56,948 bases of DNA, from IMG/VR virus record IMGVR_UViG_3300037502_002662, positions 1 through 56,948 of that record; one strand, given 5' to 3'. Positions 2,722 through 38,031 of this stretch are shown in pieces. The stretch is from a virus (taxonomy: Duplodnaviria > Caudoviricetes). The notes below the pieces were generated by a model that made no database searches, was not told the origin of the DNA, and saw only the letters and a program-made list of their open reading frames with translations. Made by a program: the position numbers and the translations under genes. Position 1 is the first letter of the stretch. The number at the start of each line of letters is the position of its first letter.

Positions 2722-3300
2722 ATGAATAAAAACTCAATTTTAGCATTTTGTGCTTCTACCGCTATTGTTACAGGTTTAGTCACCTCAGCAATATATGATG
2801 ACAGAATAAATAAAGAAGTTAATGCAATGACTACACAGGTGGAGCAATTAAAAAGGGAGGTGGAACAACAGTCAAAGGAATATGATATATTATATGAGAG
2901 ACTAAGTGCAGCTAGAAAACGTCTTGAAGAGTTAAGTGATGATACTGAGGTATTAAAAGCTATAGCGCATAACTGTAATATAGATAAATTTAAAGTAACT
3001 GCTTACTCACCTTACGATGATAGAAATGGTTTAAATAGTGATGGCAACCCTAACTATACAGCAACAGGGATAACCCCTAAAGAAGGTACTATTGCTGTAA
3101 ATCCAGAAATTATACCTTATGGTTCTACAGTTGTAATAGTATATAATGATGGTACCATAGAAGTTGGACGAGCTGAAGATACTGGTGGGGCGCTGCGACG
3201 CAAGGGTAATATGCAGATTGATGTATTTAGACGTACATATGAGGAAGCCATGCGCCATGGCGTAAAAGAAGCCACTGTATTATGGTATAAGGAGGAATAA
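2722..3300 (+). CDS. Membrane-anchored/secreted 3D-domain (lytic transglycosylase-like) protein
   Basis: N-terminal hydrophobic helix, coiled coil, VTAY, TATG, IAVNP..IPYGS, AEDTGGA, IDVF. Confidence 0.85.
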   Translation: MNKNSILAFCASTAIVTGLVTSAIYDDRINKEVNAMTTQVEQLKREVEQQSKEYDILYERLSAARKRLEELSDDTEVLKAIAHNCNIDKFKVTAYSPYDDRNGLNSDGNPNYTATGITPKEGTIAVNPEIIPYGSTVVIVYNDGTIEVGRAEDTGGALRRKGNMQIDVFRRTYEEAMRHGVKEATVLWYKEE

Positions 3301-5036: not shown

Positions 5037-5255
5037 ATGAGTAAAGCCACAGAATATCACTATTATAGCGACGGATATCTTTTTATAAAGCATTCTACTA
5101 GGCCTGAAAATGGCACAATAAATGTTTACAAAATAATTGTAGATAGAGAAGGTAATGTACATCTTAATGAGAGATTTTTATTTAACATTTACGGTATAGG
5201 TAGTTATGATGAATTTGTAATGTATTGTAAAGAATATAGTAAGCTTGAATGGTAA
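5037..5255 (+). CDS. Hypothetical protein
   Basis: AAGGAGG RBS, ATG at 5037. Confidence 0.7.
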   Translation: MSKATEYHYYSDGYLFIKHSTRPENGTINVYKIIVDREGNVHLNERFLFNIYGIGSYDEFVMYCKEYSKLEW

Positions 5256-18363: not shown

Positions 18364-19000
18364 TAAATGTGGATGGGTTTTTCCATCTACCTATAATAAA
18401 TCACGTTGCAATATTTGTGGTAATTTACTAAGTATCCAATATTGTCCTAAATGTAAGCAATTTCTTCCGTTAAGTAATTTTTCATGGAGAAGCAGTGATA
18501 AAAGAGTCTTAAGGTCATATTGTGATGAGTGTCATAAAAGATTTGCTATAGAATATAGATTAAAATATCCTGAAAGATCTAAAAGATACCATAAAAATAC
18601 CTATATACGGCAGAATGAAGAAGTAGAGAAAAGATATAAAGAATGGCTTAGTACTATAAAGGCTTTAGGTAAAATATCTCCTTTAACTGAAGAAGAATGG
18701 CATGAAGCTGTAGACTTTTTTAAAGGGTGCGCAATATGTGGTGACCCACATATTGAAATTAGAACATTATTTATATTAACCAAATGCGGTGGTGGATACA
18801 ATAAAACTAATGTATTTCCTACATGTGCTACATGTGGAACAAGAAAGCGCACGCAAGAAAATCCTTTTAGGTGGTTACACTACAGACTAGGTAATTATCA
18901 ACATATGAATTTAAGTAAGCGTCGCACTGAGCGCTTAATTGGCTATTTGAAATCAAAAATTGAGGAGGTACAGAATGAAAGAAATATGGGTGCCGATTAA
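18341..19000 (+). CDS. Zn-ribbon plus degenerate HNH-like protein
   Basis: Multiple CxxC; LTEEEW..FKGCAICG..GGGYNKTNVFPTCATC lacking the usual DH. Confidence 0.65.
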   Translation: MSVKRTCSKCGWVFPSTYNKSRCNICGNLLSIQYCPKCKQFLPLSNFSWRSSDKRVLRSYCDECHKRFAIEYRLKYPERSKRYHKNTYIRQNEEVEKRYKEWLSTIKALGKISPLTEEEWHEAVDFFKGCAICGDPHIEIRTLFILTKCGGGYNKTNVFPTCATCGTRKRTQENPFRWLHYRLGNYQHMNLSKRRTERLIGYLKSKIEEVQNERNMGAD

Positions 19001-19829
19001 AGACTATGAAGGTTTATATGAAGTTTCTAATAAAGGTAACATACGTGACGCACATGGCAAAAACCTTATTCCTAATGATAATGGTCAAAGATTACAGGTG
19101 ACGTTATGTAAAAATGGTATGCACAAAGAAGTAGCAATTCACAAAATAGTAGCAGAAACTTTTGTACCAAATGACGACCCAATAAATAAAATTATAATTA
19201 ATCATAGAGATGGCAACTATAGGAATAACTCTGTAGATAACTTAGAGTGGTGCACTCCACAGCATGGTAAGGATAATAAAATTAAAAAAGTATACCAGTT
19301 TAACAAATATTATAGTCTTATAGCACAATATTATTCAGCTAATGAAGCATCAAAGCAAACAGGGATATCTCTTAGAGATATCCTGGCTGCTTGTAATGGC
19401 GAAATAAAGTCAGCTGGTGGATATAAATGGAGCTACAGAGTGCCAAAAGAAGTAATACTGATGGACTTTACAGAAAATTTAGCTAGCTTATCAAAATGTG
19501 AGCAACGTAGTGTTGCTGCTATAATTACTGATTATAATATGAATCAAGTTTATAGTATTGGTGTTAATGGAGGTCCTGCTGGTGGTATAGATTGTCTATG
19601 CTCTTTAGGTGGTAAAGAAACGTGTATTCATGCAGAGACTCAGGCTATAGCAAAATGTACTATAAATGATAAAAATAAAATTATGTTTGTAACGCTGTCT
19701 CCCTGTGTAACATGTGCTTCATTAATAGTAAATAGTGGTTTTAATAAAGTATATTACAGAGAAGATTGGAAAGATAATCCCGGAGTTAAACTTCTCAGAG
19801 CTTCAGGTATTATAGTAAGTAAAATTTAG
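18975..19829 (+). CDS. NUMOD4-HNH-NUMOD1 endonuclease fused to dCMP deaminase
   Basis: W.PIKDYEGLYEVSN.G, INHRDGN..NN..NLEW, SAGGYKW; then HAETQA and SPCVTC. Confidence 0.85.
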   Translation: MKEIWVPIKDYEGLYEVSNKGNIRDAHGKNLIPNDNGQRLQVTLCKNGMHKEVAIHKIVAETFVPNDDPINKIIINHRDGNYRNNSVDNLEWCTPQHGKDNKIKKVYQFNKYYSLIAQYYSANEASKQTGISLRDILAACNGEIKSAGGYKWSYRVPKEVILMDFTENLASLSKCEQRSVAAIITDYNMNQVYSIGVNGGPAGGIDCLCSLGGKETCIHAETQAIAKCTINDKNKIMFVTLSPCVTCASLIVNSGFNKVYYREDWKDNPGVKLLRASGIIVSKI

Positions 19830-19920
19830 AATAAATAATTTTTTTATAGCATTTTAAAAATATCTTATAATATTAATATAAGGGGTTACTTTTTAGCCTC
19901 TTTGCATTTTCTCCTAATTT

Positions 19921-20030
19921 TCACGGACTCGTAAAATAGTCTTATGCGTGTTCGTGATACACAAGTTAATATTATAATATTAATAAGCTATCACGAACAC
20001 GTAAAATTTAAAACAAACACGCTACATGTA
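19921..20030. repeat. Dispersed palindromic element, copy 2
   Basis: CGTGTTCGTGATA-N29-TATCACGAACACG with internal TTAATATTATAATATTAA. Confidence 0.85.
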
Positions 20031-21143: not shown

Positions 21144-23146
21144 TGGCTGTAATTAAACCAAAAAGAAAAACGGTTATTAAGCGTGGCAGTTCTTATACCT
21201 ATGATCCGAAAACATTTAAAAAAGAGCATTGGATAGATAATTTCAAACTTGTAGATGACCCAGATGAAATAATAAGAGCATTAGATAATGCGGAAATATT
21301 TGCTTTTGACTCAGAAACGTATTCTACGGGTATTGACATAAAGAAATTGCCAAAAGGTGTAGTACGTAGATGGATAGGTTCTGGTAAAAAAGCACGTCCG
21401 CAAGATTATCCGTTTTTAATGAGTTTCTGTTATGGCGATACAGCGTATTCAATATATGATACAGCTGAAAATGGGTTCAAGAAATTTAAAAGGCTTGGTA
21501 AAGAACTACTTGAGGACAAAACAAGAGAAAAAATAATACATAATGCAAAGTTTGATATGCATATAGCTGAAAATATTGGTATTAAACTTCAAGGTAAAAT
21601 ACATGACACAATAGTACTAGCTAAATTAGTTAATGAAAATAGAGGTTCATTCAGGCTAATGAAACTGGCAGAACAGTATGATGAGGGTATAATAAAATTT
21701 GAATATATGGTAGATGCTTACAAGAAGAAATACAAAATTGGTGACTATCGCAAAATTCCTAAGGACTTAATAGTAATGTATGCAAATGCAGACGTTTGGA
21801 ATGCACAACTGATATATAATAAAGAATATCCAAAAATAATTGACGATAACCTTATAAACTTATACAATCAAGAATTAGAATTAATATACCCATTATATGA
21901 AATGGAACGTATAGGTATGTATACAGATGAAGCTTATTTATTAAAGCAAGATGTATTAATGCAAGAAGAAGTTAACACAGCCGAACAAAAAATATACGAT
22001 GAAGCTGGTACTTATTTCAATATAAATTCTGGTAAACAACTATATAGAACGTTACTAGATTTGGGAGTAGATGATAGAATTATAAAGAAAACTGACAAAG
22101 GTAACCCAAAAACTAGTAAAAAAGAATTAGAAAGGTTAGCTACAAAACATAATGTAAAACTTGTTCAATATATTTTGGACTATAGAGCCGTGCATAAACT
22201 ACATAATACATATATTGAAGGTATTTTGGCTCAAAGAGACGCAGAAGGTAAAGTACATGGTAGCATAAATCAAACTGAAGCAACTACAGGCCGTATGTCT
22301 ATAACAAAGCCAGCACTACAAACACTACCTAAGGATGATACAAGAATAAGAAAGGCTTTTGTACCATCAAGTGATGAATACGGATTATATTTCATGGATT
22401 TAGATCAGGTAGAATATAGATTATTTGCACATTACGCTAAAGCTGAAGAATTAATTAAGAGTATTAAAAAAGGATGGGATATACACAGAGCCACCGCAGC
22501 TATATTATTTAGCGTGCCTTATGATGAAGTAACAGACGAACAAAGGTCTAAAGCTAAAACAATGAACTTTGCTTTAATTTATGGAATGGGTATAAATGCA
22601 TTAGCTGGTAACTTAAAATGTATTGTATCAGAAGCGCACGATTTTAGAAATAGATATTTTGCTCAAATACCTGAGGCAGAACCATTTATAAGTCAAGTAC
22701 AAAGAGTGTGCAGAACCAGAGGATATATACGTAACTTCTATGGTAGACGAAGAAGACTTAAATACAATGAAGTTTACAAAGCTGTTAATGCACTTATACA
22801 AGGATGCGCAGCAGATTACATTAAGAGTAAAATAATTAAAATATATAGGTTTTTAAAGTACAATAATTACAAAACCAGAATGATTAATGTAGTTCATGAC
22901 GAAATAGTTTTTGAAGTCCATAAAGATGAGCTACATATATTACCAAAATTAAGATGGTTGCTATCTGATTTTGAAACATTTAGGGTACCTATAACAGCAG
23001 GTGTAGATAAAGGTAATCCATCTTGGGGTCAAAAACAAAAAGATGTACCAATAGATTTTGAAAAACTCACAGATGAAGAACTAAAATTGATAAGCAAATC
23101 AATAATACCGCACAGAGAAGCACCGTTCGATAAAGAAATTTCCTAA
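21143..23146 (+). CDS. Family A DNA polymerase with 3'-5' exonuclease
   Basis: FDSET, HNAKFD, YANAD; TTGRMS, DLDQVEYR, KTMNFALIYG, NALIQG, VHDE. Confidence 0.95.
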   Translation: MAVIKPKRKTVIKRGSSYTYDPKTFKKEHWIDNFKLVDDPDEIIRALDNAEIFAFDSETYSTGIDIKKLPKGVVRRWIGSGKKARPQDYPFLMSFCYGDTAYSIYDTAENGFKKFKRLGKELLEDKTREKIIHNAKFDMHIAENIGIKLQGKIHDTIVLAKLVNENRGSFRLMKLAEQYDEGIIKFEYMVDAYKKKYKIGDYRKIPKDLIVMYANADVWNAQLIYNKEYPKIIDDNLINLYNQELELIYPLYEMERIGMYTDEAYLLKQDVLMQEEVNTAEQKIYDEAGTYFNINSGKQLYRTLLDLGVDDRIIKKTDKGNPKTSKKELERLATKHNVKLVQYILDYRAVHKLHNTYIEGILAQRDAEGKVHGSINQTEATTGRMSITKPALQTLPKDDTRIRKAFVPSSDEYGLYFMDLDQVEYRLFAHYAKAEELIKSIKKGWDIHRATAAILFSVPYDEVTDEQRSKAKTMNFALIYGMGINALAGNLKCIVSEAHDFRNRYFAQIPEAEPFISQVQRVCRTRGYIRNFYGRRRRLKYNEVYKAVNALIQGCAADYIKSKIIKIYRFLKYNNYKTRMINVVHDEIVFEVHKDELHILPKLRWLLSDFETFRVPITAGVDKGNPSWGQKQKDVPIDFEKLTDEELKLISKSIIPHREAPFDKEIS

Positions 23147-23231
23147 ATAATTTTATTTATTATATGTTATAATATAAATAGAAGGAAAAAATTTAAAATT
23201 TCAAATCAAAAAATTAAGGGGGGTGAACAAA

Positions 23232-23438
23232 ATGGCTATGAAAGCCACCATGTGGTCAATAATTTACAATGAAAAAACAGATGAAGCATGTACAGCAAAA
23301 GCTAATACGTATAATTTAACATTAAAAGACTAAATGATTTATTTCCAGAGCACAGTACAACTTGTATTATGTGTTCTACTAAAGAACCTACAAAAAGAGC
23401 AAATTAAAAGAATTGTTAGGAGGTGTAATAAATGGTAA
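23232..23438 (+). pseudogene. Small gene broken by two A-run frameshifts
   Basis: Promoter and RBS, MAMKATMW..LK then RLNDLFPE..KEPTK then EQIKRIVRR in shifted frames. Confidence 0.5.
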
Positions 23439-24010
23439 ATGGTAAAAAGTATGTTAAGCATTTAGGTTGTGAGGCGCTTAAAGAAATCGCTGAAAAAATA
23501 TTAAGTAATCATAAACAAGCAATTCACAAACATGCACGTAACGTTAAACTAAATAAAAGCGTTGAGGCAATGTTTGTAAAAAGAACGTTAGAAGCTATAT
23601 CTTGGGATATAGAGTACTTAGCAGATTATATACACAATCAATTAAATAGTATTATTAAATTATACGATAGATGGATGCTAAAAGCAGATACCTCTATAGA
23701 GGCCTATAAAAGGATAATAGAGGTATTAGAAGACATAGACTATAAAATTACATTACATTTGGATGAAGTACTAATAGAAGCATTTGATGAAAGATTATCA
23801 ATTAATATATCTATTAATGAAATAAAAATAGTATATGATACAGATGTTAACGTTTATAAAAGGTCTGAATCATATATTGATTCATCAATAGAGCATATAC
23901 AATCAATTATTATACAGGAAGAAGGCAATTTTGAAAAATTTTCTGATGAAGTGCCTGAAGGAATTAGAAAAGATTTTAAGTATTTTTCATCACCAACATG
24001 GGAAGAATAA
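23432..24010 (+). CDS. Hypothetical protein
   Basis: AGGAGG RBS. Confidence 0.7.
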   Translation: MVNGKKYVKHLGCEALKEIAEKILSNHKQAIHKHARNVKLNKSVEAMFVKRTLEAISWDIEYLADYIHNQLNSIIKLYDRWMLKADTSIEAYKRIIEVLEDIDYKITLHLDEVLIEAFDERLSINISINEIKIVYDTDVNVYKRSESYIDSSIEHIQSIIIQEEGNFEKFSDEVPEGIRKDFKYFSSPTWEE

Positions 24011-24035
24011 AAAACTATAATAAGGAGGTATTAAA

Positions 24036-24653
24036 ATGGTAAAAAAAGCAATAAAAGCAATTTGGACAACAAAATTAGAGAAAGGATTAGATGCAAATAG
24101 TTACTTTGAAGGTTTTTCTGATGAAGTGGAAGAAAAATTATACGAAAAAGTAAAAATTAAAGTTGCTGGATATAGTCAAAACGAAGGTTCAAGAGAATTT
24201 GAGATTTTAAAAAAAGAAAAAATTGAAAAAATTATAAACAATATAGACATGGAAGAAATTTGGAAAAGGACATTTAAAAAGGCTAATGGATATACTTCTG
24301 GTACCGCATATACCTATATTGATACTAGAACAGGAAAAATTGTAACATCATGGTTGCAACAATATAATGAGTTACACCCTTGGGATAGCTTTTACGAAAT
24401 AGTGTTGTGTTCTATCAAAACTCCTGTATTTGATTTTGAAGCAAAAGACTTACTAGATGAAGAAGAACAGAAAGATTTTTTTAGTCAAGACAATTACATT
24501 GATATTGAAGAATTTATAAGAGGAAAATATGGAGATGAAGAATTAGAAGAAAGAATAGAAGAAGCCATAGATTGGTATGCATGTGAATTTGTACCAGATT
24601 GGGATAATATAGAAAATCAGATTATAAATTTATATAGAAAAGTAGAAGAATAA
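24036..24653 (+). CDS. Hypothetical acidic protein
   Basis: AAGGAGG RBS. Confidence 0.75.
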   Translation: MVKKAIKAIWTTKLEKGLDANSYFEGFSDEVEEKLYEKVKIKVAGYSQNEGSREFEILKKEKIEKIINNIDMEEIWKRTFKKANGYTSGTAYTYIDTRTGKIVTSWLQQYNELHPWDSFYEIVLCSIKTPVFDFEAKDLLDEEEQKDFFSQDNYIDIEEFIRGKYGDEELEERIEEAIDWYACEFVPDWDNIENQIINLYRKVEE

Positions 24654-24747
24654 AAATGGTTCTTTATAAAAATTTAAGTTGCTCCCGGGGGACTAAGGGG
24701 ACCCCCGGGCATGAATCCTAGCGTAAACGATAAAGGAGGTGCTGATA

Positions 24748-24963
24748 ATGCCTAATATTTATTCGTCAATTCATTTCAGAAGTGATGAAAAAGTGTCAGC
24801 TGATATGAAAATTAATGAATCGGCTGAGACAGGTGTTTATGCTGTGTTATCAATAGGGGATATAAAATTCTTTGGAACAATCAAACAAATAAGGTCGATA
24901 ATGCATCAAATTTATGCTAAGATAGATGATTTTGAAGAATCCGCACAGTATTATGAAAAGTAG
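24748..24963 (+). CDS. Hypothetical protein
   Basis: AAGGAGGT RBS. Confidence 0.65.
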   Translation: MPNIYSSIHFRSDEKVSADMKINESAETGVYAVLSIGDIKFFGTIKQIRSIMHQIYAKIDDFEESAQYYEK

Positions 24964-24981
24964 GGTACAGTATCACACATT

Positions 24982-25270
24982 AAATGGCATAAACGTGTAA
25001 AAACAAATATTAGCCATTTGTTAAAGATGGCATTATAAAATCACTATTTAGGAGTGATATGTAATGTTCAATAATAGAATAGAGCTATGGGAAGTAGGGT
25101 TCACCTGTGGTAAAATAGAACTATGGGAAGTAGCATTTCATGAAGGTGGACAGTACTACAAAGTTATAACAGATAACTATTCTTCATTTGATTATGACAA
25201 TGAAATACCAGAATGGCATGACATGAATGATATTTCTAATGAACTAATAAGAGATATCGAATATATACAA
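24982..25270 (+). repeat. Degenerate duplicate of 25879-26209
   Basis: Long near-identical blocks with different deletions in each copy. Confidence 0.9.
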
Positions 25271-25300
25271 TCAATTATTATGCAGGGAGGTGGAAAGTAA
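25064..25300 (+). CDS. Hypothetical protein (rearranged duplicate)
   Basis: IELWEV repeated; homologous to broken copy starting at 25986. Confidence 0.55.
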   Translation: MFNNRIELWEVGFTCGKIELWEVAFHEGGQYYKVITDNYSSFDYDNEIPEWHDMNDISNELIRDIEYIQSIIMQGGGK

Positions 25301-25497
25301 TGACTACTATATTCTGTCCATATAGCGCTTGCAAATATAATACTTCTCGACGTCCTTGTAAAGTTGGTATATGCATAGCTGAAGAGATAAGACTTGCAGA
25401 TTATGAACTGGACGAGCCTATCTACACAGACAAAGGAGAAATTGAAGAAGCTTTAGATTGTGAAATGTACAAGCATTATCCACAAAAATTCTATTAA
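25300..25497 (+). CDS. Small Cys-rich protein
   Basis: CP..CKYN..C..C..C. Confidence 0.65.
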   Translation: MTTIFCPYSACKYNTSRRPCKVGICIAEEIRLADYELDEPIYTDKGEIEEALDCEMYKHYPQKFY

Positions 25498-25518
25498 TTC
25501 ATGGGGCCAAGTGCCCCA

Positions 25519-25572
25519 GTGTCTAATGCAGCCGAGGACGGTCCCAAGCCCGTGTAAATGCAGAGGGGACAT
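25519..25572 (+). ncRNA. Twister ribozyme (type P1, no P3)
   Basis: UGUC U^A A UGCA GC CGAGG ACGG UCCC AAGC CCGU GUAAA UGCA GAGGG GACA: P1, P2, P4 and both pseudoknots present. Confidence 0.9.
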
Positions 25573-25597
25573 AAAAATTACAAAGGGAGGCAATATA

Positions 25598-25795
25598 ATG
25601 AAAAGAATTAAGTGCCCACTTTGCTCTACGCCTTCAACAGCAACAGAATGGAATAATAAGACACGAGAATATTTTGATACAGGCATTGCAGAGCCCTACA
25701 TTATAATATCTGTAATTGAAGCAGCTATATATGTTTGTCCTAAATGTGAGGAGGAGTTAGGAGGTGAGATACTAGAACAAAACTTTATAGATTAA
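25598..25795 (+). CDS. Small Zn-ribbon protein
   Basis: GGGAGG RBS; CPLC..CPKC. Confidence 0.7.
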   Translation: MKRIKCPLCSTPSTATEWNNKTREYFDTGIAEPYIIISVIEAAIYVCPKCEEELGGEILEQNFID

Positions 25796-25818
25796 GATTA
25801 AACAAAGGGGGACCAATT

Positions 25819-25986
25819 ATGTATGACTACAATAAAATGTCAAAAATGAGAGAAGCTATCAAAAAACCTTATGGCTACAAATGGCATAAACGTGTAAATA
25901 AAATGACTGATAAACAAATATTAGCCATATACAAACGATTTGTTAAAGATGGCGTTATAAAACCACTATTTAGGAGTGATGTGTAA
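25819..25986 (+). CDS. Small phage protein (55 aa; absent from ORF track)
   Basis: AAAGGGGG RBS; MREAIKKPYGYKWHKRVNKMTDKQILAIYKRF. Confidence 0.7.
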   Translation: MYDYNKMSKMREAIKKPYGYKWHKRVNKMTDKQILAIYKRFVKDGVIKPLFRSDV

Positions 25987-26215
25987 TGTTCGATAATAGA
26001 ATAGAACTTATAAAATATTTAGAGAGTATCATAGGCACAGATGACATAGCAGTTGTTAAAGTAGGGTTCATCTGTGGTAAAATAGAACTATGGGAAGTAT
26101 TACAAAGTTATAACAGATAACTATTCTTCATTTGATTATGACAATGAAATACCAGAATGGCATGAATGATATTTCTAATGAACTAGTAAGAGATATCGAC
26201 TATATACAAGTAATA
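25986..26215 (+). pseudogene. Frameshifted paralogue of 25064-25300
   Basis: Deletion after ELWEV shifts the frame; downstream homology continues. Confidence 0.6.
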
Positions 26216-26232
26216 TTTTAAAATAACCCTTA

Positions 26233-26320
26233 TACGTGTCCGTGATAAAATTAATAGTACTATAATATTAATAAGGTTATCACGGACACGTAAAATTTAA
26301 AATAAGCATGTTACGTGTTA
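26233..26320. repeat. Dispersed palindromic element, copy 3
   Basis: TACGTGTCCGTGATA-N30-TATCACGGACACGTA perfect 15-bp arms. Confidence 0.85.
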
Positions 26321-26356
26321 TCTATGAGTATAATAATATGTATAATAATTATATTA

Positions 26357-26418
26357 GCTTAATGCGGCCTGTAGATTTTCTACAGACGGTCCCAAGCCCG
26401 TGTAAACGCAGAGGGAGC
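26357..26418 (+). ncRNA. Twister ribozyme (type P1, with P3 hairpin)
   Basis: GCU U^A A UGCG GC CUGUAGA-UUU-UCUACAG ACGG UCCC AAGC CCGU GUAAA CGCA GAGGG AGC. Confidence 0.9.
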
Positions 26419-26442
26419 ATACAATACATAAGGAGGTATTCT

Positions 26443-26709
26443 ATGGCAAGAAGTACAAACTAGTGTGGGACAATCAAAAAGTTATAGGTGAAGTTAAAAA
26501 GTCCCAAGAAAAAAGGTGGTGATAACGTTAAATGCAAGACAAGGAATAAAGTACATATACCTAAAAGGTTTCTACATACGTAAAAAAAGACAACGAAAAG
26601 ATGGTATCAAAAGACCAATTGAAGAAAACAGCACTATATTGTTAAATTAATGCAAGAAGCTATTGACCAAGCAGATGATTTTGACATTATAATATGGTTC
26701 TGTACATAA
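26443..26709 (+). pseudogene. Multiply frameshifted PC4/YdbC-like ssDNA-binding gene
   Basis: Fragments KYKLVWDNQKVIGEVKK / VVITLNARQGIKYIYLKGFYIRKK / KDGIKRP in different frames after AAGGAGG RBS. Confidence 0.5.
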
Positions 26710-26721
26710 AGGGGGACACGT

Positions 26722-27663
26722 ATGAAAGTAAAAGACTTAAATGTAGGTGATAATGTAAACATAATACTAGCGGTAAAAGAAGCTCAGCTAAAATCTACAA
26801 AAGGTGGTAAACCTTACTTGGCGATGACATTATTTGATGGAGATGAAATAATATCAGCCAATCACTGGGATTATTACTCACAATATATACCAAAACCAAA
26901 TGATATTGTAGACATTATAGCTAACGTATCAACATGGAAAGAAAAGAAGCAGCTAACAATTCAATCATTCAAAGTCAGAAGAGACTTGGATATTAAGCAG
27001 TTTGCACCTCAAGGTAACATCAATGTGGAGCAGTATATTAAAACATTAAATGGTCTAATTAACAGTATCAACAACCCAGTACTAAAAGAATTAACAGAAC
27101 AGATAATTGTAGACAATCTACCTAATCTAAAAGTTAAGCCTGCAGCAAAGACATTTCATCACGCCTATGTTGCAGGGTTGCTTAAACACTCTGTAGACGT
27201 AGCTTCACATGCAGCAAATATTGCATCATACACAGATAACTGCTCTGAAGACTTATGTATAGCTGGAGGCCTTCTGCATGATATTGGTAAACTATGGACT
27301 TACAATATTGATGGAGTAGATATAACAATGTCTTTAAATGGAGAATTAATTGAACACATAAGCAAAGGCCTCATAGAGATTGAAAAATATAGAAATAAAG
27401 AGAACACAGGTTTAATAGATTTATTACAACATATAATTGCTAGTCATCATGGTAAGCTTGAGTATGGATCCCCAGTGACACCAAAATTCCTAGAAGCGTG
27501 GATAGTGCATTTCTGTGATAACCTTGATGCTAAAATAAATATAGTACAAGAAATAAATCAAAACTTAAAAAAAGGTGAGCTATATACAGATAAGCAATGG
27601 GCATTAGAAAATCAAAAAATGATATCCCAAGAATACATTAAGTCTATTGTAGGAGGTGCTTAA
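26722..27663 (+). CDS. yhaM: YhaM/Cbf1-like OB-fold + HD 3'-5' exoribonuclease
   Basis: GKPYLAMTL.D, PAAKTFHHAY.GLLKH, LLHDIGK, SHHGKLEYGSP. Confidence 0.9.
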   Translation: MKVKDLNVGDNVNIILAVKEAQLKSTKGGKPYLAMTLFDGDEIISANHWDYYSQYIPKPNDIVDIIANVSTWKEKKQLTIQSFKVRRDLDIKQFAPQGNINVEQYIKTLNGLINSINNPVLKELTEQIIVDNLPNLKVKPAAKTFHHAYVAGLLKHSVDVASHAANIASYTDNCSEDLCIAGGLLHDIGKLWTYNIDGVDITMSLNGELIEHISKGLIEIEKYRNKENTGLIDLLQHIIASHHGKLEYGSPVTPKFLEAWIVHFCDNLDAKINIVQEINQNLKKGELYTDKQWALENQKMISQEYIKSIVGGA

Positions 27664-28474
27664 AGTGGGTTTCTACAAACTGTTCTATTGTGATATCTGT
27701 GGGGCGGAGTACCCTCCCCACTTGTTAAAAGATTTAGGCAATTCAACACATTTGTGTGAAACATGTATAACACCTAAATTAGTGGTCGTAAGAGATATAG
27801 CCAACATCATAGATGAAAATTCTAATAAATATTTTGCAGCAATACAAAAAATGGCAAAAGAACACGATGTATTAGTGCTAGAAACTATTGTACAAAATGA
27901 AAAAGAATTTAAGGAAGTTGCTTCACTTGAGATACCTACTCTTGTGTTGCAACCGTGTCAATTTGATACATCAATTATCAAACATAATATGGAAAAATAT
28001 CAAACAGTAAGGGCCATAAAAAGTATAATAAAAGAGTCAAATATAGATAAGCCTACTGTTATAATATTCAACAGATCAGACTTAATAGGAAAGCCACTGG
28101 CACTTGCACTCCTAGATAAAGACATAAATGCAACGCCTATTGTAATACACTCTAAAACACCACATGAACGTGCCGCCACGCTTCTTGAACAAGCCGATAT
28201 TGTTGTGTTGGCTACATCTAAAACGCAGAATATTAATGTAAAAGGTAAAGTGGTCATTGATATAAGTGGTGATAATTCATCACTTAAAGACCAGTGTAGA
28301 TACGTTTCTATGTCTGAGGTAGGTAAGCGTACTACACAAAGACTAATCAAAGATGTTAGGAGATGGTGGTATGGAAACATGCAAGAATGGCGTAAAGGTC
28401 TACAGTATGGGTTGGATAATGCTAATAATAACGATAATAGCATTGATAGTAGTGCCGGGGAGGCAGGAAGATGA
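27656..28474 (+). CDS. folD: Zn-finger fused to truncated FolD-like methylene-THF dehydrogenase/cyclohydrolase
   Basis: PKLVVV..S.KY, NRSDLIGKPLA..LL..NAT..HSKT..ADIVVLA, VVIDI. Confidence 0.7.
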   Translation: MLKVGFYKLFYCDICGAEYPPHLLKDLGNSTHLCETCITPKLVVVRDIANIIDENSNKYFAAIQKMAKEHDVLVLETIVQNEKEFKEVASLEIPTLVLQPCQFDTSIIKHNMEKYQTVRAIKSIIKESNIDKPTVIIFNRSDLIGKPLALALLDKDINATPIVIHSKTPHERAATLLEQADIVVLATSKTQNINVKGKVVIDISGDNSSLKDQCRYVSMSEVGKRTTQRLIKDVRRWWYGNMQEWRKGLQYGLDNANNNDNSIDSSAGEAGR

Positions 28475-30691: not shown

Positions 30692-30732
30692 TTGTACAAA
30701 TAACTACGTATATTACAGGATGTTGGAACTAC

Positions 30733-30761
30733 AGTGTATCATTTTGATACACTTTTTTTTT
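30733..30761 (+). terminator. Terminator ending the replication/accessory arm
   Basis: AGTGTATCA-TTT-TGATACACT plus T-run. Confidence 0.8.
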
Positions 30762-30777
30762 CTGTAAAACTTACCAA

Positions 30778-31390
30778 TTTTCGCTACGTAGCAATGTAGC
30801 GAAAAAGTGTTCAAACCCAGTGTTTCCAATATATTGAGCATCCCTGAGGGTATACTTTTTCGCAACCTTCGTCGCCTTTGCTACTTTTGAACGTAAAAAT
30901 AGGTTTATTTAATAAAAATTTTATCTAAGTATGTGTTGCGGTGGTTATACAGTTATCTTTCTGTAATTATTCAAAAAAGAGCATATATCTAAACTACAAT
31001 ATTTCTTTATATATTAAAGAAAATGTATATAAAGGGATTTTTTTTATTTATTGTTATTAAAATATTTTAAATATACATTAAATACTATATAATATATGTT
31101 TTTATAAAATATCTTATTAGATATAATACTTTATTAGAAAATATACAAAATATAAATTGTATGTAGATAAGTACTCTATCAGCATATTAAATTAAACAAA
31201 AATTTTTTATTATAAAACTAAAAAATGCGTTGCGAAGGTAGCGAAAGTAGCGAAGGTAACGAAAAAAATATCTTTCCAAATTGCCTATAGGTTGGAATCA
31301 CTAAGTTTGAAGGCTCTTAAAATTTTCGCTACGTAGCGAAAAACTGTACACTTCATAGCTAAAAACGTAGCGAAAACGTAGCGAAAAATT
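30778..31390. other. Candidate replication origin: long imperfect inverted repeat with GTAGCGAAA iterons flanking an AT-rich core
   Basis: Mirror arms ~30778-30925 and ~31195-31342; perfect palindrome TTTTCGCTACGTAGCGAAAA at 31323-31342. Confidence 0.65.
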
Positions 31391-31832
31391 ATTTATTGAG
31401 TTTAAAAATTTTAAAATAATTTTAAAAATCATTAAATAACTTAAAAACAACCAAGCTAAACGACATTTTCTACCAATTTTATCAAGTGCGGATCAGCGCG
31501 GCGCGGCAGCTAAGTCCTCTTAATATTATATAAACCATTAGCCACAGCGATACAATGTTAAATAAACTCAAAATAAAATACAAATGTAGCTTAGTAACGA
31601 AGTGCCTTTTTACGCGGGTCAATCTGCAAAGATTCAAAAACTATAAGACTGAGCGGCCTCGTCTTATCGAGGCAGCACCGCGACATAGACCCCCTCTTGC
31701 GTCGTGGCATTGCATAGGCTAATTGAGGCTATAATAGTATAAGTAATTAATAGTTATGGCTAATCGGCGCCGCAAAGAGGTTGTGTAGTTAATACATAGC
31801 TCAGGCTAATCGGCGCCGCATCAGCACAAAAT

Positions 31833-31863
31833 AAAAAGAAGCGACTATTCATCGTCGCTTCTT
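31833..31863 (-). terminator. Terminator for minus-strand transcript
   Basis: AAGAAGCGAC-N8-GTCGCTTCTT with A-run on the left. Confidence 0.75.
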
Positions 31864-32019
31864 ACTAACATTTCCATTAGCTTAAGCTTTGCTGATAGCA
31901 AGTCATCATACATAAATCTTTTGTAGGAACTTATAGCATCTATTATTTTGTTGTCGTCATCCATAAAGCATATACTAACAAGATCATACAGTATTCTTAA
32001 TTCTTTTTGTAGTTAACAT
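31845..32019 (-). pseudogene. Small minus-strand gene with a 1-nt frameshift near its start
   Basis: GGAGG RBS, MLT then QKELRILYDLVS..VRSDDE* in shifted frame; 175 nt. Confidence 0.5.
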
Positions 32020-32074
32020 TTGTAAACCTCCTTAAGTTATTAAATTGTTGAAGGGCTTGTACAGCCCTTCGTAT

Positions 32075-32860
32075 TTATTTGGATACCAACATCTCCCTAA
32101 TTTTACTAAGTATTTCTTTACTATCTGAAGCCTTTAGTTTTTCAACATTGATTGTAGTTAACATATTTTCGATTTCTTTTTGTTTTTCTAATGCTTCAGC
32201 AGCTTTTGGATTACCGCTGTCTCTAAGCGTTTTCAATTGTTCTTCAACTTCAAGTAACTTTTTGTACCTTTCACTATTAGGGTCAAAGTCAGCTTTTGAT
32301 TTCATTATGGACTTTTTGGATTGAATATTTCTGATTGCCTTCCTTAATTTTTCTTGGTCGTTAGCTAACTCTTGGAGTTCATCTTCAGTATATTCTACTG
32401 TAGATCTTTTTGGACCACCACTTTTAGACTTAGGCTTGTCCGCAGCGATTCTAAGTAAATTTTCTGCAATCGCTGCTGTTACAAGCTTTTTATAGTTATC
32501 GATTGTCATTGTTTTTGATTTTGTGCGACTTCTTTTTGATTGTTGGCTCTTAATCATTCTGTCGATTTCATCATCCGTTGCTTGTTTTAGAAATTCAACG
32601 TCAACTTCTTGTAAGTTAGTAACTTGTGATATTAATTCATCCATAGCGTCATGTGATTTTTTACTTTCTTCAACCTTTGATTGATACTTTTCAACATCAG
32701 TAGCTATTTTGTTTAACACATCGTTTGCAACTTCTTCACTGGTAGCTACTAATTGTGCTGTGTAGGTCAACGACCTACCAGCTGTACTTTGCTGCTTGCC
32801 TCCTTCAGCAAAAAGTCCTTTCAAGTTGTTTTTGTTTGACATCATTTTACCAACCTCCAC
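32075..32860 (-). CDS. Basic helical hypothetical protein with two IxxxQSK repeats
   Basis: IKSQQSKRS and IRNIQSKKS; GGAGG RBS; promoter at 32904-32938. Confidence 0.85.
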   Translation of the reverse strand: MEVGKMMSNKNNLKGLFAEGGKQQSTAGRSLTYTAQLVATSEEVANDVLNKIATDVEKYQSKVEESKKSHDAMDELISQVTNLQEVDVEFLKQATDDEIDRMIKSQQSKRSRTKSKTMTIDNYKKLVTAAIAENLLRIAADKPKSKSGGPKRSTVEYTEDELQELANDQEKLRKAIRNIQSKKSIMKSKADFDPNSERYKKLLEVEEQLKTLRDSGNPKAAEALEKQKEIENMLTTINVEKLKASDSKEILSKIREMLVSK

Positions 32861-33364
32861 TTTGTAATTTTTTTTGAAAAGAAATTTTTCTTTTCTTAAT
32901 TATATTATACTACAAATAACTGAAATTTAATTAAGCAATTTGGATTTGGAGCAGCGACCACTAGTGTGATTATGTCGTTTTATATCTTTGGTCCGTTTTA
33001 TGCAGCAGGTTTTGGCTAATCATTATCGCATGTAATTCTACTATGCTTGGTCAAATTGACGCTGCATGATGCGCTATGTAGTTCAATCTAACTGATGTTG
33101 TTTTTATTGCTGCTTGATTAGGATTTACCAAAGCTTCATGAAGTATTGCATAGCTAGTTCTAATCGTTGCTTCTATGTTAACTTAGATTTAGCTGACTGC
33201 CGCTGAATTCATAAAGTGATATTGTAATATTATTTAGTTTGACTGAAGCCGCATAGGGGTATGCCTTTAGCAATTATTAGTTGAACGGCGCTGATCCAAT
33301 TTAAAATTACTTGTGTAAACTTCAACATTTTGTGGTATAATATAAATAAGAGGTTGATTTTAAA

Positions 33365-33742
33365 ATGAAAAAACTAACAGCTGCTGACAAAAATATTATA
33401 TTGGAGGTGGTTAGCAATAAATTAAACTTGATAGCATACGACGATGCTACAAAACTGAGAGATGACTTATGGCAAGAAAATTTCATCAGTTTGCTTCAGG
33501 CTAAATACAATTTACGATGTGAAACATATAGCGATGAGCTACAGCTGCTAAAAGAACATTTGATGCTGCTAGTTGAAATCTATTTGAGGAAAATTGACAA
33601 ACACCAAGAGATTAATGCATTCTTCGATATCAAAATAACAGTGAATGACGTTGAATATGAAATACCGTTAGATTGCGATGTGTATAATACGCTGGTAGAT
33701 TTTATTGATAAAAAACTTGGTATTGAAGATGATAGTGAGTAG
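33365..33742 (+). CDS. Hypothetical protein, own promoter and terminator
   Basis: TTACTT-N23-TATAAT (33307-33341), GAGG RBS, AGTAGCCA..TGGCTACT terminator. Confidence 0.75.
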   Translation: MKKLTAADKNIILEVVSNKLNLIAYDDATKLRDDLWQENFISLLQAKYNLRCETYSDELQLLKEHLMLLVEIYLRKIDKHQEINAFFDIKITVNDVEYEIPLDCDVYNTLVDFIDKKLGIEDDSE

Positions 33743-33892
33743 CCATTAGTGGCTACTTTCTTTTTTTACTTTTTATGCGGCAGCTGATGGTAATGCTAAA
33801 CCGTTTTATAGCAATTGCTTAGCCCAATCAAAGCTTTTATGGTGTTGCGTAGTCTTAACCAATCGACGCTGATTACAGAATATTTAAAATGT

Positions 33893-34150
33893 TTAGAATA
33901 TTCTGACAATTTTGAAGACTCGAAGTACTTAGAATATTCTGACAATTTCGAAGACTCGAAGTACTTAGAATATTCTGACAATTTCGAAGACTCGCGTTGT
34001 GTGACAATTGATTTGGCTGATCGAGGCCGCATAGCATTCATTAGGTAAATTGTCAGAATATTCTGACAATTTTGAAGACACGCATTACCAGAAAAGTGAA
34101 GGCTCGCATTACCAGAATATACATAATATTCTGAATATTCTGACAATTCA
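33893..34150. repeat. 36-bp tandem repeat (~2.8x) and GAATATTCTGACAATT family, including a 26-bp perfect palindrome at 34047-34072
   Basis: TTAGAATATTCTGACAATTTCGAAGACTCGAAGTAC; AAATTGTCAGAATATTCTGACAATTT. Confidence 0.9.
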
Positions 34151-34217
34151 AAGCCTATCTCCCCCTCGGTCTCCACGGCATATTTCCCTTAAATATGCCC
34201 CCTTTAGGGTGAAGAGG

Positions 34218-34319
34218 CTATTTCATTAACCTCTTCATTCTATTTAAACCTTTGAAGGTAGGCTCTATACTCATTTCTTTACATATCCTTAAGTACAATC
34301 TTAAAATCTTTATGTTCAT
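34218..34319 (-). CDS. 33-aa basic peptide (absent from ORF track)
   Basis: AAGGGGG RBS; MNIKILRLYLRICKEMSIEPTFKGLNRMKRLMK. Confidence 0.65.
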   Translation of the reverse strand: MNIKILRLYLRICKEMSIEPTFKGLNRMKRLMK

Positions 34320-34352
34320 TTGTTCAACCCCCTTGATTTGATGAGTTAAACC

Positions 34353-34868
34353 TTAAAGGTTTAACTCATCATTATTTAAGTCTTTTAGTAGTTGTATTAC
34401 ATATTCTTTATCTAATTTTTCTTCTTGATTTTCTAGATGATTTATTAGATTATTTATTGAAGATTTTCTTACACAATATTCAGGAACTGGTTTAATCGTT
34501 TCTTTATGTTCTAGTAACATTTTTTCAATTTCACAAGCTTTATTATATTCTGTTTTATCTTCATCATATTGTGAATTACATTTTTTAGATTGAATTGATT
34601 TTATTGCTCTTAAAGTTTCTTCATAGTTTAGATTTTTAATATCTTCTTGTTCAAATTCTGTGACAAATTTTTTCCTTGGTTCAAAATAAGCTTTAACTTC
34701 TTTTAGTGCTTGTTCATATTCTAGTAGTTTTTTCATTTTTGATTCATAATCTTTTCTTGCTTTTTGTTTTTTCAATCTGCACTTTTTAGTTTGTACATTT
34801 CTTATCTCTTTTTTCACCTCTTTTACATTTTTGAATTTTTTGCTTAATTCTTGTACATTTTTTAACAT
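34353..34868 (-). CDS. Basic helical hypothetical protein, paralogous to 32075-32860
   Basis: IRNVQTKKC..KKLLEYEQALK and IKSIQSKKC; AAGGAGGG RBS; TGTGGTATAAT promoter. Confidence 0.85.
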   Translation of the reverse strand: MLKNVQELSKKFKNVKEVKKEIRNVQTKKCRLKKQKARKDYESKMKKLLEYEQALKEVKAYFEPRKKFVTEFEQEDIKNLNYEETLRAIKSIQSKKCNSQYDEDKTEYNKACEIEKMLLEHKETIKPVPEYCVRKSSINNLINHLENQEEKLDKEYVIQLLKDLNNDELNL

Positions 34869-35029
34869 TTGTAATCCCTCCTTATTTAATTTTTAAAAGT
34901 TTATTTATTATTTGTTCTAGTTATATTATACCACAAATTAATAAAAATTATAACCATTTTTTTAATTTAGGCAAAAAATTTTTGATTTAAAAAATTTGTT
35001 TAGAAGTTTGAATATTTAAAATATTTTTA

Positions 35030-35225
35030 AAATTATGAATATTATAAATATTATGAATATATATAAAATATTTTAAATATTATGAATATATAAAAAATTT
35101 TAAATATTATGAATATTATGAATATTATGAATATTTAGAATATTCTGAAAATTTAAAATATTCTGAAAATTTAAAATATTCATAATAGTCCAAAAATTAC
35201 GAAAATTTTGAATATTCTGACAACT
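35030..35225. repeat. 9/18-bp AATATT-based repeat array upstream of terS
   Basis: (AATATTATG)n, AATATTCTGAAAATTTA x2, GAATATTCTGACAA. Confidence 0.85.
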
Positions 35226-35356
35226 ACGCCAAGGGTTGAGGCGCACAATCATATAATAAGGAAAGCCCCAAAGCGGCGCATGATTATACTAATACATAAA
35301 CCATAGTATAGGTCCAAAAGTTACACGAAATATGGACGTAGAGTCAGAATAGGCTA

Positions 35357-35389
35357 GAGCTATAGCAAATGACATTCTAACGTATAATA
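35357..35389 (+). promoter_or_regulatory. Candidate late promoter GAGYTATARC-N12-AACGTATAATA
   Basis: Same bipartite motif and spacing at 40023-40055; both precede AGGAGGTG of structural operons. Confidence 0.65.
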
Positions 35390-35410
35390 TTTATTAGGAG
35401 GTGAAATATT

Positions 35411-36175: not shown

Positions 36176-36646
36176 TTGCAGTCAACAAAGGCATGTCGTT
36201 TGTGTGGTGTAGAAAAGCCACTGACGCAGTTCTACAGAAATGGTAAGGATAAGTACGGTAGAACAAAGTATAGGAGTGAATGCAAGACGTGTCATAAGAT
36301 ACTTAAGAAAATAAGTAAAAAGAAACATAATAAGTTCAAGAATAATACAAGAAATCGTGGGGCTAAAGATGTGTTAACCTTTGATGAATGGAAGGAGATA
36401 TTAATACACTGGCAGGGTAGATGTGCCTATTGTGGAAAGGAGCCAAAGGGACGTGGTCAACAACTAACAAAAGAACATGTAGTACCTTTGAGCAAAGGTG
36501 GAGCATCTACAAAGAATAATATAATACTCGCCTGTATAAGTTGTAATTGTAGCAAATCTAATGAAGATTTAATAGATTGGTATCACAGACAGAAATTCTT
36601 TAATAAAGAAAGACTTAGAAAAATATTGGATTGGATAGGGAGGTGA
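36176..36646 (+). CDS. HNH endonuclease with N-terminal Zn finger
   Basis: CAYCG, EHVVPLSKGG..NII.ACISCNCSK. Confidence 0.9.
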   Translation: MQSTKACRLCGVEKPLTQFYRNGKDKYGRTKYRSECKTCHKILKKISKKKHNKFKNNTRNRGAKDVLTFDEWKEILIHWQGRCAYCGKEPKGRGQQLTKEHVVPLSKGGASTKNNIILACISCNCSKSNEDLIDWYHRQKFFNKERLRKILDWIGR

Positions 36647-36651
36647 CACTG

Positions 36652-38031
36652 ATGAAAGTACCGGGTATTGATTTGCTTAACTCGGATGTAGATCTCGTGG
36701 CACTACAGAAGGCTTTAACACCACGACTTACTAAGTACATTCCGTTTGATCCAACAACAAAACAAACAGCTTTCTTGATAATGAATGACGTTAGGGAGAT
36801 ATTGTATGGAGGTGCTGCAGGTGGTGGCAAGTCTGTTGCTCAGCTAATGGGAGCTCTTCAGTATGCAGATATCCCCGGGTACAATGCTATCTTGTTTAGA
36901 AAAACTTATGCTGACTTAGCAAAGCCCGGTGCGCTGTTAGATATGGCTAAGCAGTGGTTAATGCCTTTTGTAGAACGTAAGGAAGTAAAGTGGTCGGAGA
37001 AGGAAAAAAGGTTCACCTTCCAATCAGGTGCCACATTAACATTTGGGTATCTGGAGTCTGAAAATGATATGTACAACTATCAAGGAGCTGAGTATCAATA
37101 CATCGGCATGGATGAATGTACGCAGATAAACCCTAAGTGTTATAGGTATCTATTCTCAAGACTTAGAAAGCCAAAGTGGCTTAAAGTACCATTAAGATTT
37201 AGAGCCACAGCAAACCCTGGTGGTGAATTCGGAGAGTACTACTACGAAAGGTTTTTTGTAGAAGGACCAGAAAAAGGTAGAGTATTTATTCCTGCTGGTA
37301 TAGATGACAATCCGTATCTTGACTCTGAAGAGTATAAACAGTCACTTGCAGAACTAGATCCAGTTACAAGGGAGCAATTACTTAATGGTAACTGGCAAAT
37401 AAGAGAAGCTGGTGACATGTTTAATAGAGAATGGTTTACTATTGTATCGCATAATGAAATACCAAGCAATGCAATATATGTAAGATATTGGGATATGGCA
37501 TCTACAGATCCTAGTAAGCGAAAAAATAAAAAGGATAAACGTGAACCAGACTGGACTGTAGGTCTTAAAATGGCGTTTAGTCAAGGCATATATTGGATAA
37601 TAGATATTGTAATGACACAATCAACCCCAAGTCAGGTTGAGTCCTTGATAGCACGTACTGCTTCATCTGATGGGCATAATGTTGCAATAAGGATGGAGCA
37701 AGAACCGGGGTCTTCTGGAGATATTACAATAGACCATTATGCAAGAAATGTGCTTGTAGGTTACAACTTCAAAGGCGTTAGATCTACAGGGTCCAAGATT
37801 CAGAGAGCTGAACCGGCTTCTGCTGCAGCCGAGCAAGGTAGGATATTAATAAGTAATAGATGTAGGAATATTAGTGCATTTTTTGATCAGATTGAGCTGT
37901 TTCCTTATGGTGCAAAGGACGACATTGTAGATGCATTTTCAGGAGCGTTTAATTACTTTAGGGGTCCTGCAATATCTGTAGCACCGTCTGGGATAGGGAA
38001 TAAGGGTTCATATTGGAAACGAGCCTACTAA
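36652..38031 (+). CDS. Terminase large subunit
   Basis: YGGAAGGGKS, IGMDE, ATANPGG, YWDMA, DDIVDA. Confidence 0.95.
   Translation: MKVPGIDLLNSDVDLVALQKALTPRLTKYIPFDPTTKQTAFLIMNDVREILYGGAAGGGKSVAQLMGALQYADIPGYNAILFRKTYADLAKPGALLDMAKQWLMPFVERKEVKWSEKEKRFTFQSGATLTFGYLESENDMYNYQGAEYQYIGMDECTQINPKCYRYLFSRLRKPKWLKVPLRFRATANPGGEFGEYYYERFFVEGPEKGRVFIPAGIDDNPYLDSEEYKQSLAELDPVTREQLLNGNWQIREAGDMFNREWFTIVSHNEIPSNAIYVRYWDMASTDPSKRKNKKDKREPDWTVGLKMAFSQGIYWIIDIVMTQSTPSQVESLIARTASSDGHNVAIRMEQEPGSSGDITIDHYARNVLVGYNFKGVRSTGSKIQRAEPASAAAEQGRILISNRCRNISAFFDQIELFPYGAKDDIVDAFSGAFNYFRGPAISVAPSGIGNKGSYWKRAY

Follow-up and report, generated by a model that had tools for sequence, protein, structure and literature searches.

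The locus described here lies in the IMG/VR virus record IMGVR_UViG_3300037502_002662 (Duplodnaviria; Caudoviricetes), whose entire sequence of 56,948 bp (96% estimated completeness; standard genetic code, table 11) we analyzed and refer to as the window. Two twister elements, twister 1 and twister 2, stand there on the + strand, the strand of all neighboring genes, in intergenic gaps of a co-directional gene block; they lie 836 nt apart from cut to cut and bracket two intact small genes and one pseudogene. As judged from sequence and predicted fold, both are bona fide type-P1 twister ribozymes, for which self-cleavage is predicted. The features of the locus, in order of position, are as follows (SD, Shine–Dalgarno sequence; ORF, open reading frame; aa, amino acids).

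25502 to 25518, + strand: P0-type hairpin of 6 bp, UGGGGC-CAAGU-GCCCCA, immediately next to P1 of twister 1.
25520 to 25571, + strand: twister 1, type P1 without P3, the minimal 52-nt form; predicted cut U25524/A25525.
25585 to 25590 (SD GGGAGG) and 25598 (ATG) to 25795 (stop), + strand: 65-aa CxxC...CxxC gene.
25819 to 25986, + strand: 55-aa gene matching phrog_6038 (function unknown) at E 4.4e-09.
25986 to 26221, + strand: frame-disrupted copy of the 78-aa gene at 25064-25300, in pieces of 44 aa and 29 aa.
26228 to 26318, + strand: third copy of a promoter/operator-like element, with inverted ACGTGTCCGTGATAA half-sites at 26234-26248 and 26277-26291.
26356 to 26419, + strand: twister 2, type P1 with P3; predicted cut U26360/A26361.
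26430 to 26463, + strand: perfect SD AAGGAGG (26430-26436) and ATG at 26443, opening a mini-ORF that ends with TAG at 26461-26463.
26464 to 26721, + strand: leader of 258 nt, with only 31-aa and 44-aa ORFs.
26722 to 27663, + strand: full-length YhaM-like OB + HD 3'-5' exoribonuclease gene, the first real gene after twister 2.
27656 to 28474, + strand: FolD-like gene, next after the YhaM-like gene.

An Rfam cmscan of the whole window at gathering thresholds returned a single family, RF03160 (twister-P1), to which twister 2 (26356-26419, +) belongs with 73.0 bits (gathering score 67.2; E 8.3e-15). Twister 1 (25520-25571, +) matches the same model at 60.8 bits, with an E value of 2.7e-11 window-wide and 6.6e-13 in a 1.4-kb stretch. 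It falls 6.4 bits under the gathering score because 16 model positions of the optional P3 stem are deleted, the match being otherwise full-length; thus, by E value and conserved core it is a member, and by score it lies below the curated cut-off of 67.2 bits. These two matches bear out the P1-type fold that an earlier reading of the bare sequence (the original prediction) had claimed for both copies, and the check it had proposed against this very covariance model came out with copy 2 over the gathering score and copy 1 under it, yet at E 2.7e-11. No hammerhead, pistol, hatchet, twister-sister or HDV-like ribozyme was found at E ≤ 0.1 in the whole-window Rfam search. Our own covariance model, R1, scores twister 1 at 68.9 bits and twister 2 at 77.1 bits. 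All upper-case consensus positions of the family are identical in both copies, namely UAA at the cleavage site, GC, CGGUCCCAAGCCCG, UAAA and GAGGG; the L4 loop GUCCCAAGCC within P4 is part of this conserved core and is kept in both twisters.

The stems follow the family plan. In twister 1, P1 comprises 4 bp (25520-25523 with 25568-25571, UGUC/GACA), P2 another 4 bp (UGCA/UGCA) and P4 3 bp (ACG/CGU), and all three are recovered in the minimum free energy (MFE) fold. Twister 2 has a P1 of 3 bp (GCU/AGC) plus an A.A mismatch, a 4-bp P2 (UGCG/CGCA), a 3-bp P4 (ACG/CGU) and a P3 of 6 bp (26369-26374 with 26380-26385) to which a seventh A-U pair is possible. The fourth P2 pair is A-U in twister 1 and G-C in twister 2, a double compensatory change. 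Much of what the original prediction had read into the fold therefore stands: its P2 covariation holds, for this one pair; its cuts at 25524/25525 and 26360/26361 and their 836-nt spacing are arithmetically correct; and P3 is indeed confined to copy 2, although we read it as 6 bp, with a possible seventh, in place of the 7 bp claimed. Complements for the pseudoknots are present in both copies, as CCC 25543-25545/GGG 25565-25567 and GC 25531-25532/GC 25548-25549 in twister 1 and as CCC 26391-26393/GGG 26413-26415 and GC 26367-26368/GC 26396-26397 in twister 2; we take these to be the pairing partners, partly by our own derivation and partly by analogy with the known fold. The pseudoknot columns are near-invariant in eight aligned twisters and hence beyond the reach of covariation. 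In the twister double pseudoknot as described in PMC6154101, loop L4 pairs with L1 and L2; the same source reports P1 to be dispensable for cleavage and gives the optional stems P0, P3 and P5 as present in 21%, 78% and 1% of representatives. Set against the RF03160 family, both copies have P1, P2, P4, the pseudoknot complements, the conserved nucleotides and the U^A dinucleotide, the optional stems are P3 in copy 2 and the P0-type hairpin in copy 1, and there is no structural difference. The type-P1 twister ribozyme was reportedly described by Roth et al. in 2014.

The P0-type hairpin, a feature absent from the original prediction, forms in the MFE fold of 25495-25620 and in the centroid fold of this stretch as well. 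The 24 nt upstream of twister 1 fold at -10.8 kcal/mol, which places them in the most stable 0.3% of the window's 24-nt stretches. P0 of twister ribozymes is presumably located 5' of P1. The predicted cut would leave the upstream fragment with 6 nt between this hairpin and its 3' end. Twister 2 has no abutting 5' hairpin (-0.1 kcal/mol). The P0 of hatchet ribozymes, a hairpin just 5' of the cleavage site, is described in the hatchet literature as dispensable for catalysis and as having no apparent role.

To place the two copies among other twisters, comparison sequences were gathered by core pattern from 11 viral, 57 genomic and 7 metagenomic stretches, and a covariance model built from eight P1-type matches was used for scanning, which gave 33 matches across 70 sources and 9 across 7. 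When these 33 matches, 31 of them distinct, are aligned, 88.3% of the cells pair and double changes occur in 17 of 17 pairs; the pairing is well above that of shuffled and slid controls, as befits a known family, in an alignment that is model-fitted and hence leans toward structure. Context was tallied for the 17 type-P1 matches that reach 55 bits or more in the window and in the fetched viral and genomic DNA. The upstream 24 nt belong to the most stable 5% of the respective locus in 8 of these 17 twisters (7 of 15 without the window's two), and an SD together with the beginning of an ORF of 40 aa or more follows 8-35 nt downstream in 8 of 17 as well (again 7 of 15 without the window's two), compared with 6.4% of background positions. 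Twister 1 shows both features. Same-strand twister pairs spaced 0.46-1.2 kb apart recur in four of the fetched loci, L005, L036, L073 and L006, the last of type P5.

The nearest twister in the phage collection is that of Roseburia phage Shimadzu (LR596903.1 24284-24335; positions 3998-4049 of L001), which is 93.5% identical to twister 1 over a 46-nt core, has the same P3-less linker, GCCGAGGACGG, and carries an abutting GC hairpin. It is unannotated in its record and reaches 56.5 bits in Rfam. Its setting differs from that of twister 1, as it follows orf30, the last gene of a + block, faces an integrase pseudogene on the opposite strand and is followed by neither an SD nor a start codon; beyond the ribozyme core, which alone gives a match, the two phages are unrelated. 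Linkers near-identical to GCCGAGGACGG occur in L078 and L077 as well.

Several side observations concern these other loci. One viral contig, L004, carries a twister-P1 ribozyme and, 2.3 kb downstream, a twister-sister (2812-2874 and 5163-5234). The two twisters of L073 (91-164 and 1274-1347) are followed by an identical 3' flank, 60 nt in its printed extent, with a conserved hairpin inside, and most of this flank recurs after a strong twister of L072 (180-239). Ribozyme cassettes thus seem to spread as units. In L046 (1837-1911, Alcanivorax) and L066 (719-793, Thalassococcus), both short contigs and from assemblies unrelated to each other, twisters at 47.3 bits each have identical 40-nt upstream flanks; this likeness looks like common contamination or a mobile sequence rather than native genes.

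Downstream of twister 1, the 65-aa gene is the first cistron of the predicted 3' cleavage product; it has only a weak PHROG match, to phrog_4875 (function unknown). A 111-aa ORF at 25460-25795 that runs through twister 1 is a mechanical extension of this gene. The SDs begin 13 nt past the end of twister 1 and 10 nt past the end of twister 2, so that the ribosome-binding site that the original prediction had placed about 12 nt behind each copy is indeed there; the gene it had assigned to 26443 is an ORF of 6 codons, MARSTN. With an ORF of this length, twister 2 heads no ordinary cistron. Recoding of the two in-frame TAGs after ATG 26443 was considered and rejected, since the long late genes are open under table 11; the phage, moreover, has no tRNA. 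The stretch that follows gave little: for RNA structure in the leader at 26420-26725 the fold z-score is +0.55, with no Rfam match beyond noise, and a tblastn comparison of 26420-26760 with the window's own + strand ORFs of at least 30 aa for a paralogue or pseudogene returned only noise (E at least 0.003) among the matches listed. By blastn, 26420-26760 matches the DNA of a 74-aa gene weakly (E 0.17).

The YhaM-like gene matches NCBIfam NF010007 over residues 2-301 (E 1.3e-50; 172 bits, below the equivalog cut-off of 460), the YhaM structure PDB 9h3f (E 7.7e-40) and Pfam HD (E 2.4e-15). Its protein has no relative in viral_contigs, and nine neighboring window proteins have no match in any of 76 fetched loci. 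Beside the twisters of the other fetched loci no YhaM-like gene was found, and that the enzyme should act on ribozyme-made ends, by 3' trimming or by removal of the cyclic phosphate through its HD domain, is pure speculation. Over 23000-28000 the + strand has no predicted intrinsic terminator, so read-through across both cut sites is possible.

Between the ribozymes lies the third of three copies of a promoter/operator-like element. The ACGTGTCCGTGATAA half-site, allowing at most 3 mismatches, has 9 matches in the window where 0.69 would be expected, and 7 of these 9 are located in three gaps between genes, near 2.5, 19.95 and 26.25 kb. The corresponding copies (2515-2605, 19940-20030 and 26228-26318) share about 65 nt at 76% mean column identity, with the pattern TTAATA..TATAATATTAATAAG-TATCACGRACAYGTAAWWTTTAAAAYAARCAYGYTACRTGT and ACGTGTYCGTGATA half-sites, and they occupy large intergenic gaps before + strand genes. 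A consensus scan found TTAATA-16/17-TAAAAT at the homologous position in 2 of the 3 copies (19980-20007 and 26268-26296); in the third copy of the element, the promoter-like sequence TTAATA-17-TAAAAT at 26268-26296 would put a transcription start near 26303. The other two copies each stand behind an intrinsic terminator of the + strand (2446-2467 and 19880-19902) and in front of genes. The element class is probably a regulated promoter/operator that marks the starts of transcription units, and from the sequence a regulated start near 26303 is probable, some 57 nt ahead of the twister 2 cut.

A 33-nt inverted repeat spans 26230-26295 and folds as RNA at -29.6 kcal/mol (z -7.5) with no U-tract after it. 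We considered and rejected it as a terminator, given the missing U-tract and the different orientation of the half-sites at the other two sites; that difference in orientation makes a DNA operator more likely than an RNA hairpin. A canonical sigma-70 promoter at the TATAAT boxes 26329-26334 and 26341-26346 was likewise rejected, as these have no acceptable -35 and are absent from the scan listing. With the promoter-like element between the ribozymes, twister 2 is probably part of the 5' leader of a separate transcription unit. Given a start near 26303, many twister 2 transcripts would begin about 57 nt above the cut, and an 836-nt species would arise only from read-through; since no + strand terminator stands before the third copy, such read-through from upstream is also likely.

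Both ribozymes are contained in a tandem duplication, in which 24982-25275 matches 25879-26214 (blastn, 74% identity over 341 columns). The repeat-family offsets shift along the duplication from 922 to 967, 944 and 939. A second block, 25537-25597, which comprises the 3' half of the twister, the leader and the stretch from the SD to the ATG, matches 26385-26443 at 82% (blastn), and the DNA between the homologous blocks is unrelated. The two units (24982-25300 and 25879-26221) show reciprocal decay: of the tail of the 55-aa gene, unit 1 keeps no more than a remnant, and the 78-aa gene of unit 2 is frame-disrupted, judging by the repeat offsets through a 45-nt insertion followed by 23-nt and 5-nt deletions.

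We propose that the most likely role of both twisters, with a probability of roughly 60%, is processing in cis that defines mRNA ends. In the course of events that we infer for the infected cell, probably that of a Gram-positive, Bacillota-like bacterium, each twister would cleave the transcript that contains it, at U^A and while transcription is still under way, within early/middle transcripts for replication and nucleotide metabolism, to leave an upstream piece ending in a 2',3'-cyclic phosphate and a downstream piece starting with a 5'-OH. The downstream piece would then carry, behind its 5'-OH, the compact pseudoknotted ribozyme body and a strong SD 10-13 nt later. The twister 1 cassette (stop codon, P0, twister, SD, start codon) would part the upstream message, which would keep the P0 hairpin and 6 nt at its 3' end, from the next cistrons, which would gain a fixed leader independent of context. 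Twister 2 would trim promoter-initiated and read-through RNAs alike to one 5' end before the yhaM-like and folD-like genes, and its body, together with the perfect SD and the mini-ORF, could serve as a 5' stabilizer against 5'-exonucleolytic decay. In line with this, the twister 3' fragment is described in PMC8782182 as retaining the pseudoknots and burying its 5' end. The original prediction had both ribozymes process one polycistronic transcript; their place on the coding strand, the lack of a predicted terminator and a published hypothesis of this kind favor that part, which has to be amended for copy 2, as this probably belongs to a transcription unit of its own. More tentatively, and at less than even odds, the P0-twister-SD cassettes could be natural phage insulators, through which promoter-initiated and read-through RNAs would both receive the same 5' end, one that resists exonucleases.

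Published work offers precedents for both layout and role. In prophages, hammerheads are found on either side of single genes or of short gene blocks, where the processing of long phage transcripts was proposed as their role, and in the haloviruses HF1/HF2 a hammerhead stands 13 nt upstream of a start codon, with its cut coinciding with a mapped 5' end (as reported in PMC3088659). Bacterial self-cleaving ribozymes are described as clustering together and near phage genes, and polycistronic processing has been suggested for bacterial hammerhead and twister ribozymes, with their purpose, in the words of that source, remaining to be defined (PMC6765202, a review of 2019). Ribozymes in the 5' untranslated regions of RNA viruses are reported to be needed for translation (PMC13725137), and ribozymes of DNA bacteriophages are treated in print as already described. 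Among the closest known systems are the hammerhead arrays of Perreault et al. (2011, PMC3088659), in which coding-strand ribozymes likewise flank one to a few small, variable genes, some of them just before a start codon; the present locus differs in its ribozyme class (twister), in the probable promoter/operator before one copy and in the 6-codon ORF that the SD of this copy heads. The glmS ribozyme and the Bacillota mRNA leaders protected by a STAB-SD or by ribosomes (PMC3997798, PMC5737220) have in common with our locus a 5'-OH made by a ribozyme in a Gram-positive host, and a strong SD close to the new 5' end that could keep RNase J1 away; unlike glmS, the twisters here have no metabolite dependence and no relation to it in sequence or fold. 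RiboJ is a synthetic hammerhead-based insulator, a ribozyme before the SD that fixes the 5' leader whatever lies upstream. It is engineered, and its likeness to the twister cassettes is one of function only.

Some observations count against a processing role. Twister 2 shows neither of the two context features, with no hairpin before it and no real ORF behind its SD, and each feature is absent from 9 of the 17 comparison twisters, a set that is moreover small and biased, having been gathered with the core pattern of these very ribozymes. No close relative of the phage was found, the phage collection matching only the 46-nt twister core, in Roseburia phage Shimadzu. The promoter matches the consensus at 9 of 12 positions, and in this AT-rich stretch promoter-like sites number 38 against 27.7 ± 5.3 in shuffles. 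Finally, RNase J1 of Bacillus subtilis is reported to enter at the ribozyme-made 5'-OH of glmS mRNA and to destabilize it (PMC3997798), so that cleavage could lower rather than protect downstream expression.

This last point leads to the rival that survives best, an unlikely one, in which each ribozyme is a decay trigger: its exposed 5'-OH would be attacked by a host exonuclease of the RNase J1 type, lowering the distal genes or fixing the ratio of proximal to distal cistrons, much as in glmS but constitutively. The precedent for such an attack is the degradation of the 5'-OH product of the glmS ribozyme by RNase J1, as given in PMC3997798, and both ribozymes do lie upstream of accessory small ORFs, which are perhaps wanted at low dose. 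The host, too, would suit it: because the phage encodes an Amidase_2 (1500-2177), an S8 protease with SLH (106-1140), a 3D domain (2689-3300) and a YhaM homologue, of which the first three are lysis genes, the host is probably a Gram-positive, Bacillota-like bacterium. Against this, the twister 3' product begins with a compact double pseudoknot and a buried 5' end, unlike the glmS product (PMC8782182), and a strong SD stands within 10-13 nt of each ribozyme end; on hbs mRNA, ribosomes initiating at a strong SD are reported to block RNase J1 (PMC5737220). Twister 2 also precedes enzyme genes (yhaM-like and folD-like), not accessory ORFs alone.

We regard as slightly more doubtful still a selfish or recombination module, in which hairpin-ribozyme-SD cassettes would be portable boundaries, homology patches spread by duplication, with cleavage incidental to phage expression. 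The tandem duplication that holds both ribozymes, the reciprocal decay of its genes and the exchange of unrelated DNA between homologous flanks all fit this picture, as does the shared 3' flank of the L073 twisters, which mostly recurs in L072. The neighboring genes are not common to the window and the 76 other fetched loci, and the genes flanked by prophage hammerheads are described as likewise not constant (PMC3088659). Twister 2, however, keeps all conserved nucleotides, its P3 and the compensatory P2 change while the adjoining gene has decayed, which points to selection on the RNA itself; a selfish module would in any case be compatible with a processing role.

Circularization is very unlikely. 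Here the doubly cut 836-nt RNA (25525-26360) would have its ends joined by an RtcB-type ligase, as the original prediction had suggested. A 5'-OH and a 2',3'-cyclic phosphate are ends that suit RtcB. Self-cleaving ribozymes leave such ends (PMC8782182), no terminator is predicted between the sites, and tandem ribozyme pairs are described as making circles in eukaryotic retrozymes and viroid-like RNAs. The phage, however, gave no RtcB match; a probable promoter lies between the two cut sites; the 836-nt segment is ordinary single-copy coding DNA plus a pseudogene; and in prophage hammerhead arrays, according to the account in PMC3088659, circular or spliced products were sought and not detected. 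The missing RtcB match and the negative hammerhead precedent thus speak against the proposed joining. We do not assign the locus to the viroid-like or retrozyme-type circular RNAs, whose ribozyme-bounded units typically have no coding function and are repeated; the unit bounded here is single-copy coding DNA. Equally improbable is the specific form in which the circle, carrying an intact twister 1 body and closed by a host RtcB-type ligase, would be a translatable mRNA for two small proteins; the insulator reading is far more likely than this circular mRNA. That the elements are not ribozymes at all, owing their likeness to chance or to a common peptide ...TVPSPCK(C/R)RG... in the ORFs 25460-25795 and 26308-26463, which span them in the same relative frame, is effectively refuted by E values of 8e-15 and 3e-11 against a structure-aware model, by the compensatory P2 change, by the presence of the core in non-coding contexts in dozens of unrelated loci, and by the through-reading ORFs having no SD whereas strong SDs stand after the ribozymes.

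Elsewhere in the window, the large terminase gene (36631-38031) has its best phage-collection matches in the Methanothermobacter phages psiM100 and psiM2 (46% identity). An archaeal host was considered on account of this likeness and rejected, as the lysis genes point to a bacterium and no pseudomurein lysin (Pei peptidase, PMBR) was matched, a weak blank given that the Peptidase_C71 control matched nowhere. The phage has no tRNA genes. One ORF at 18960-19829 combines N-terminal NUMOD4 and HNH_3 homing-endonuclease motifs with a C-terminal dCMP deaminase domain, and it may represent an endonuclease fused to, or inserted before, a deaminase gene. A 985-aa protein encoded at 11637-14594 fuses a DnaG-type zinc finger, a Toprim primase and an MCM-type P-loop helicase, with genes for a YqaJ exonuclease, ThyX, an SNF2 helicase and an ATP-dependent DNA ligase nearby. 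The region 30700-35400, with low coding density, a collapse of GC skew, a strand switch and - strand ORFs at 32075-32860, 33796-34176 and 34353-34868 (two of them tested, without a Pfam match), probably separates the early from the late module.

The locus adds no new ribozyme class or arrangement, as both the layout and the processing hypothesis are already in print. It does indicate that default annotation can overlook such twisters, since the P3-less copy is sub-threshold and mechanical ORFs run through both. The purpose of self-cleaving ribozymes in bacteria and phages is described as still to be defined (PMC6765202), and the two copies make this locus a compact test case: twister 1 belongs to a textbook cassette of stop codon, hairpin, ribozyme, SD and start codon, whereas twister 2 stands between a probable promoter and the SD of a mini-ORF.

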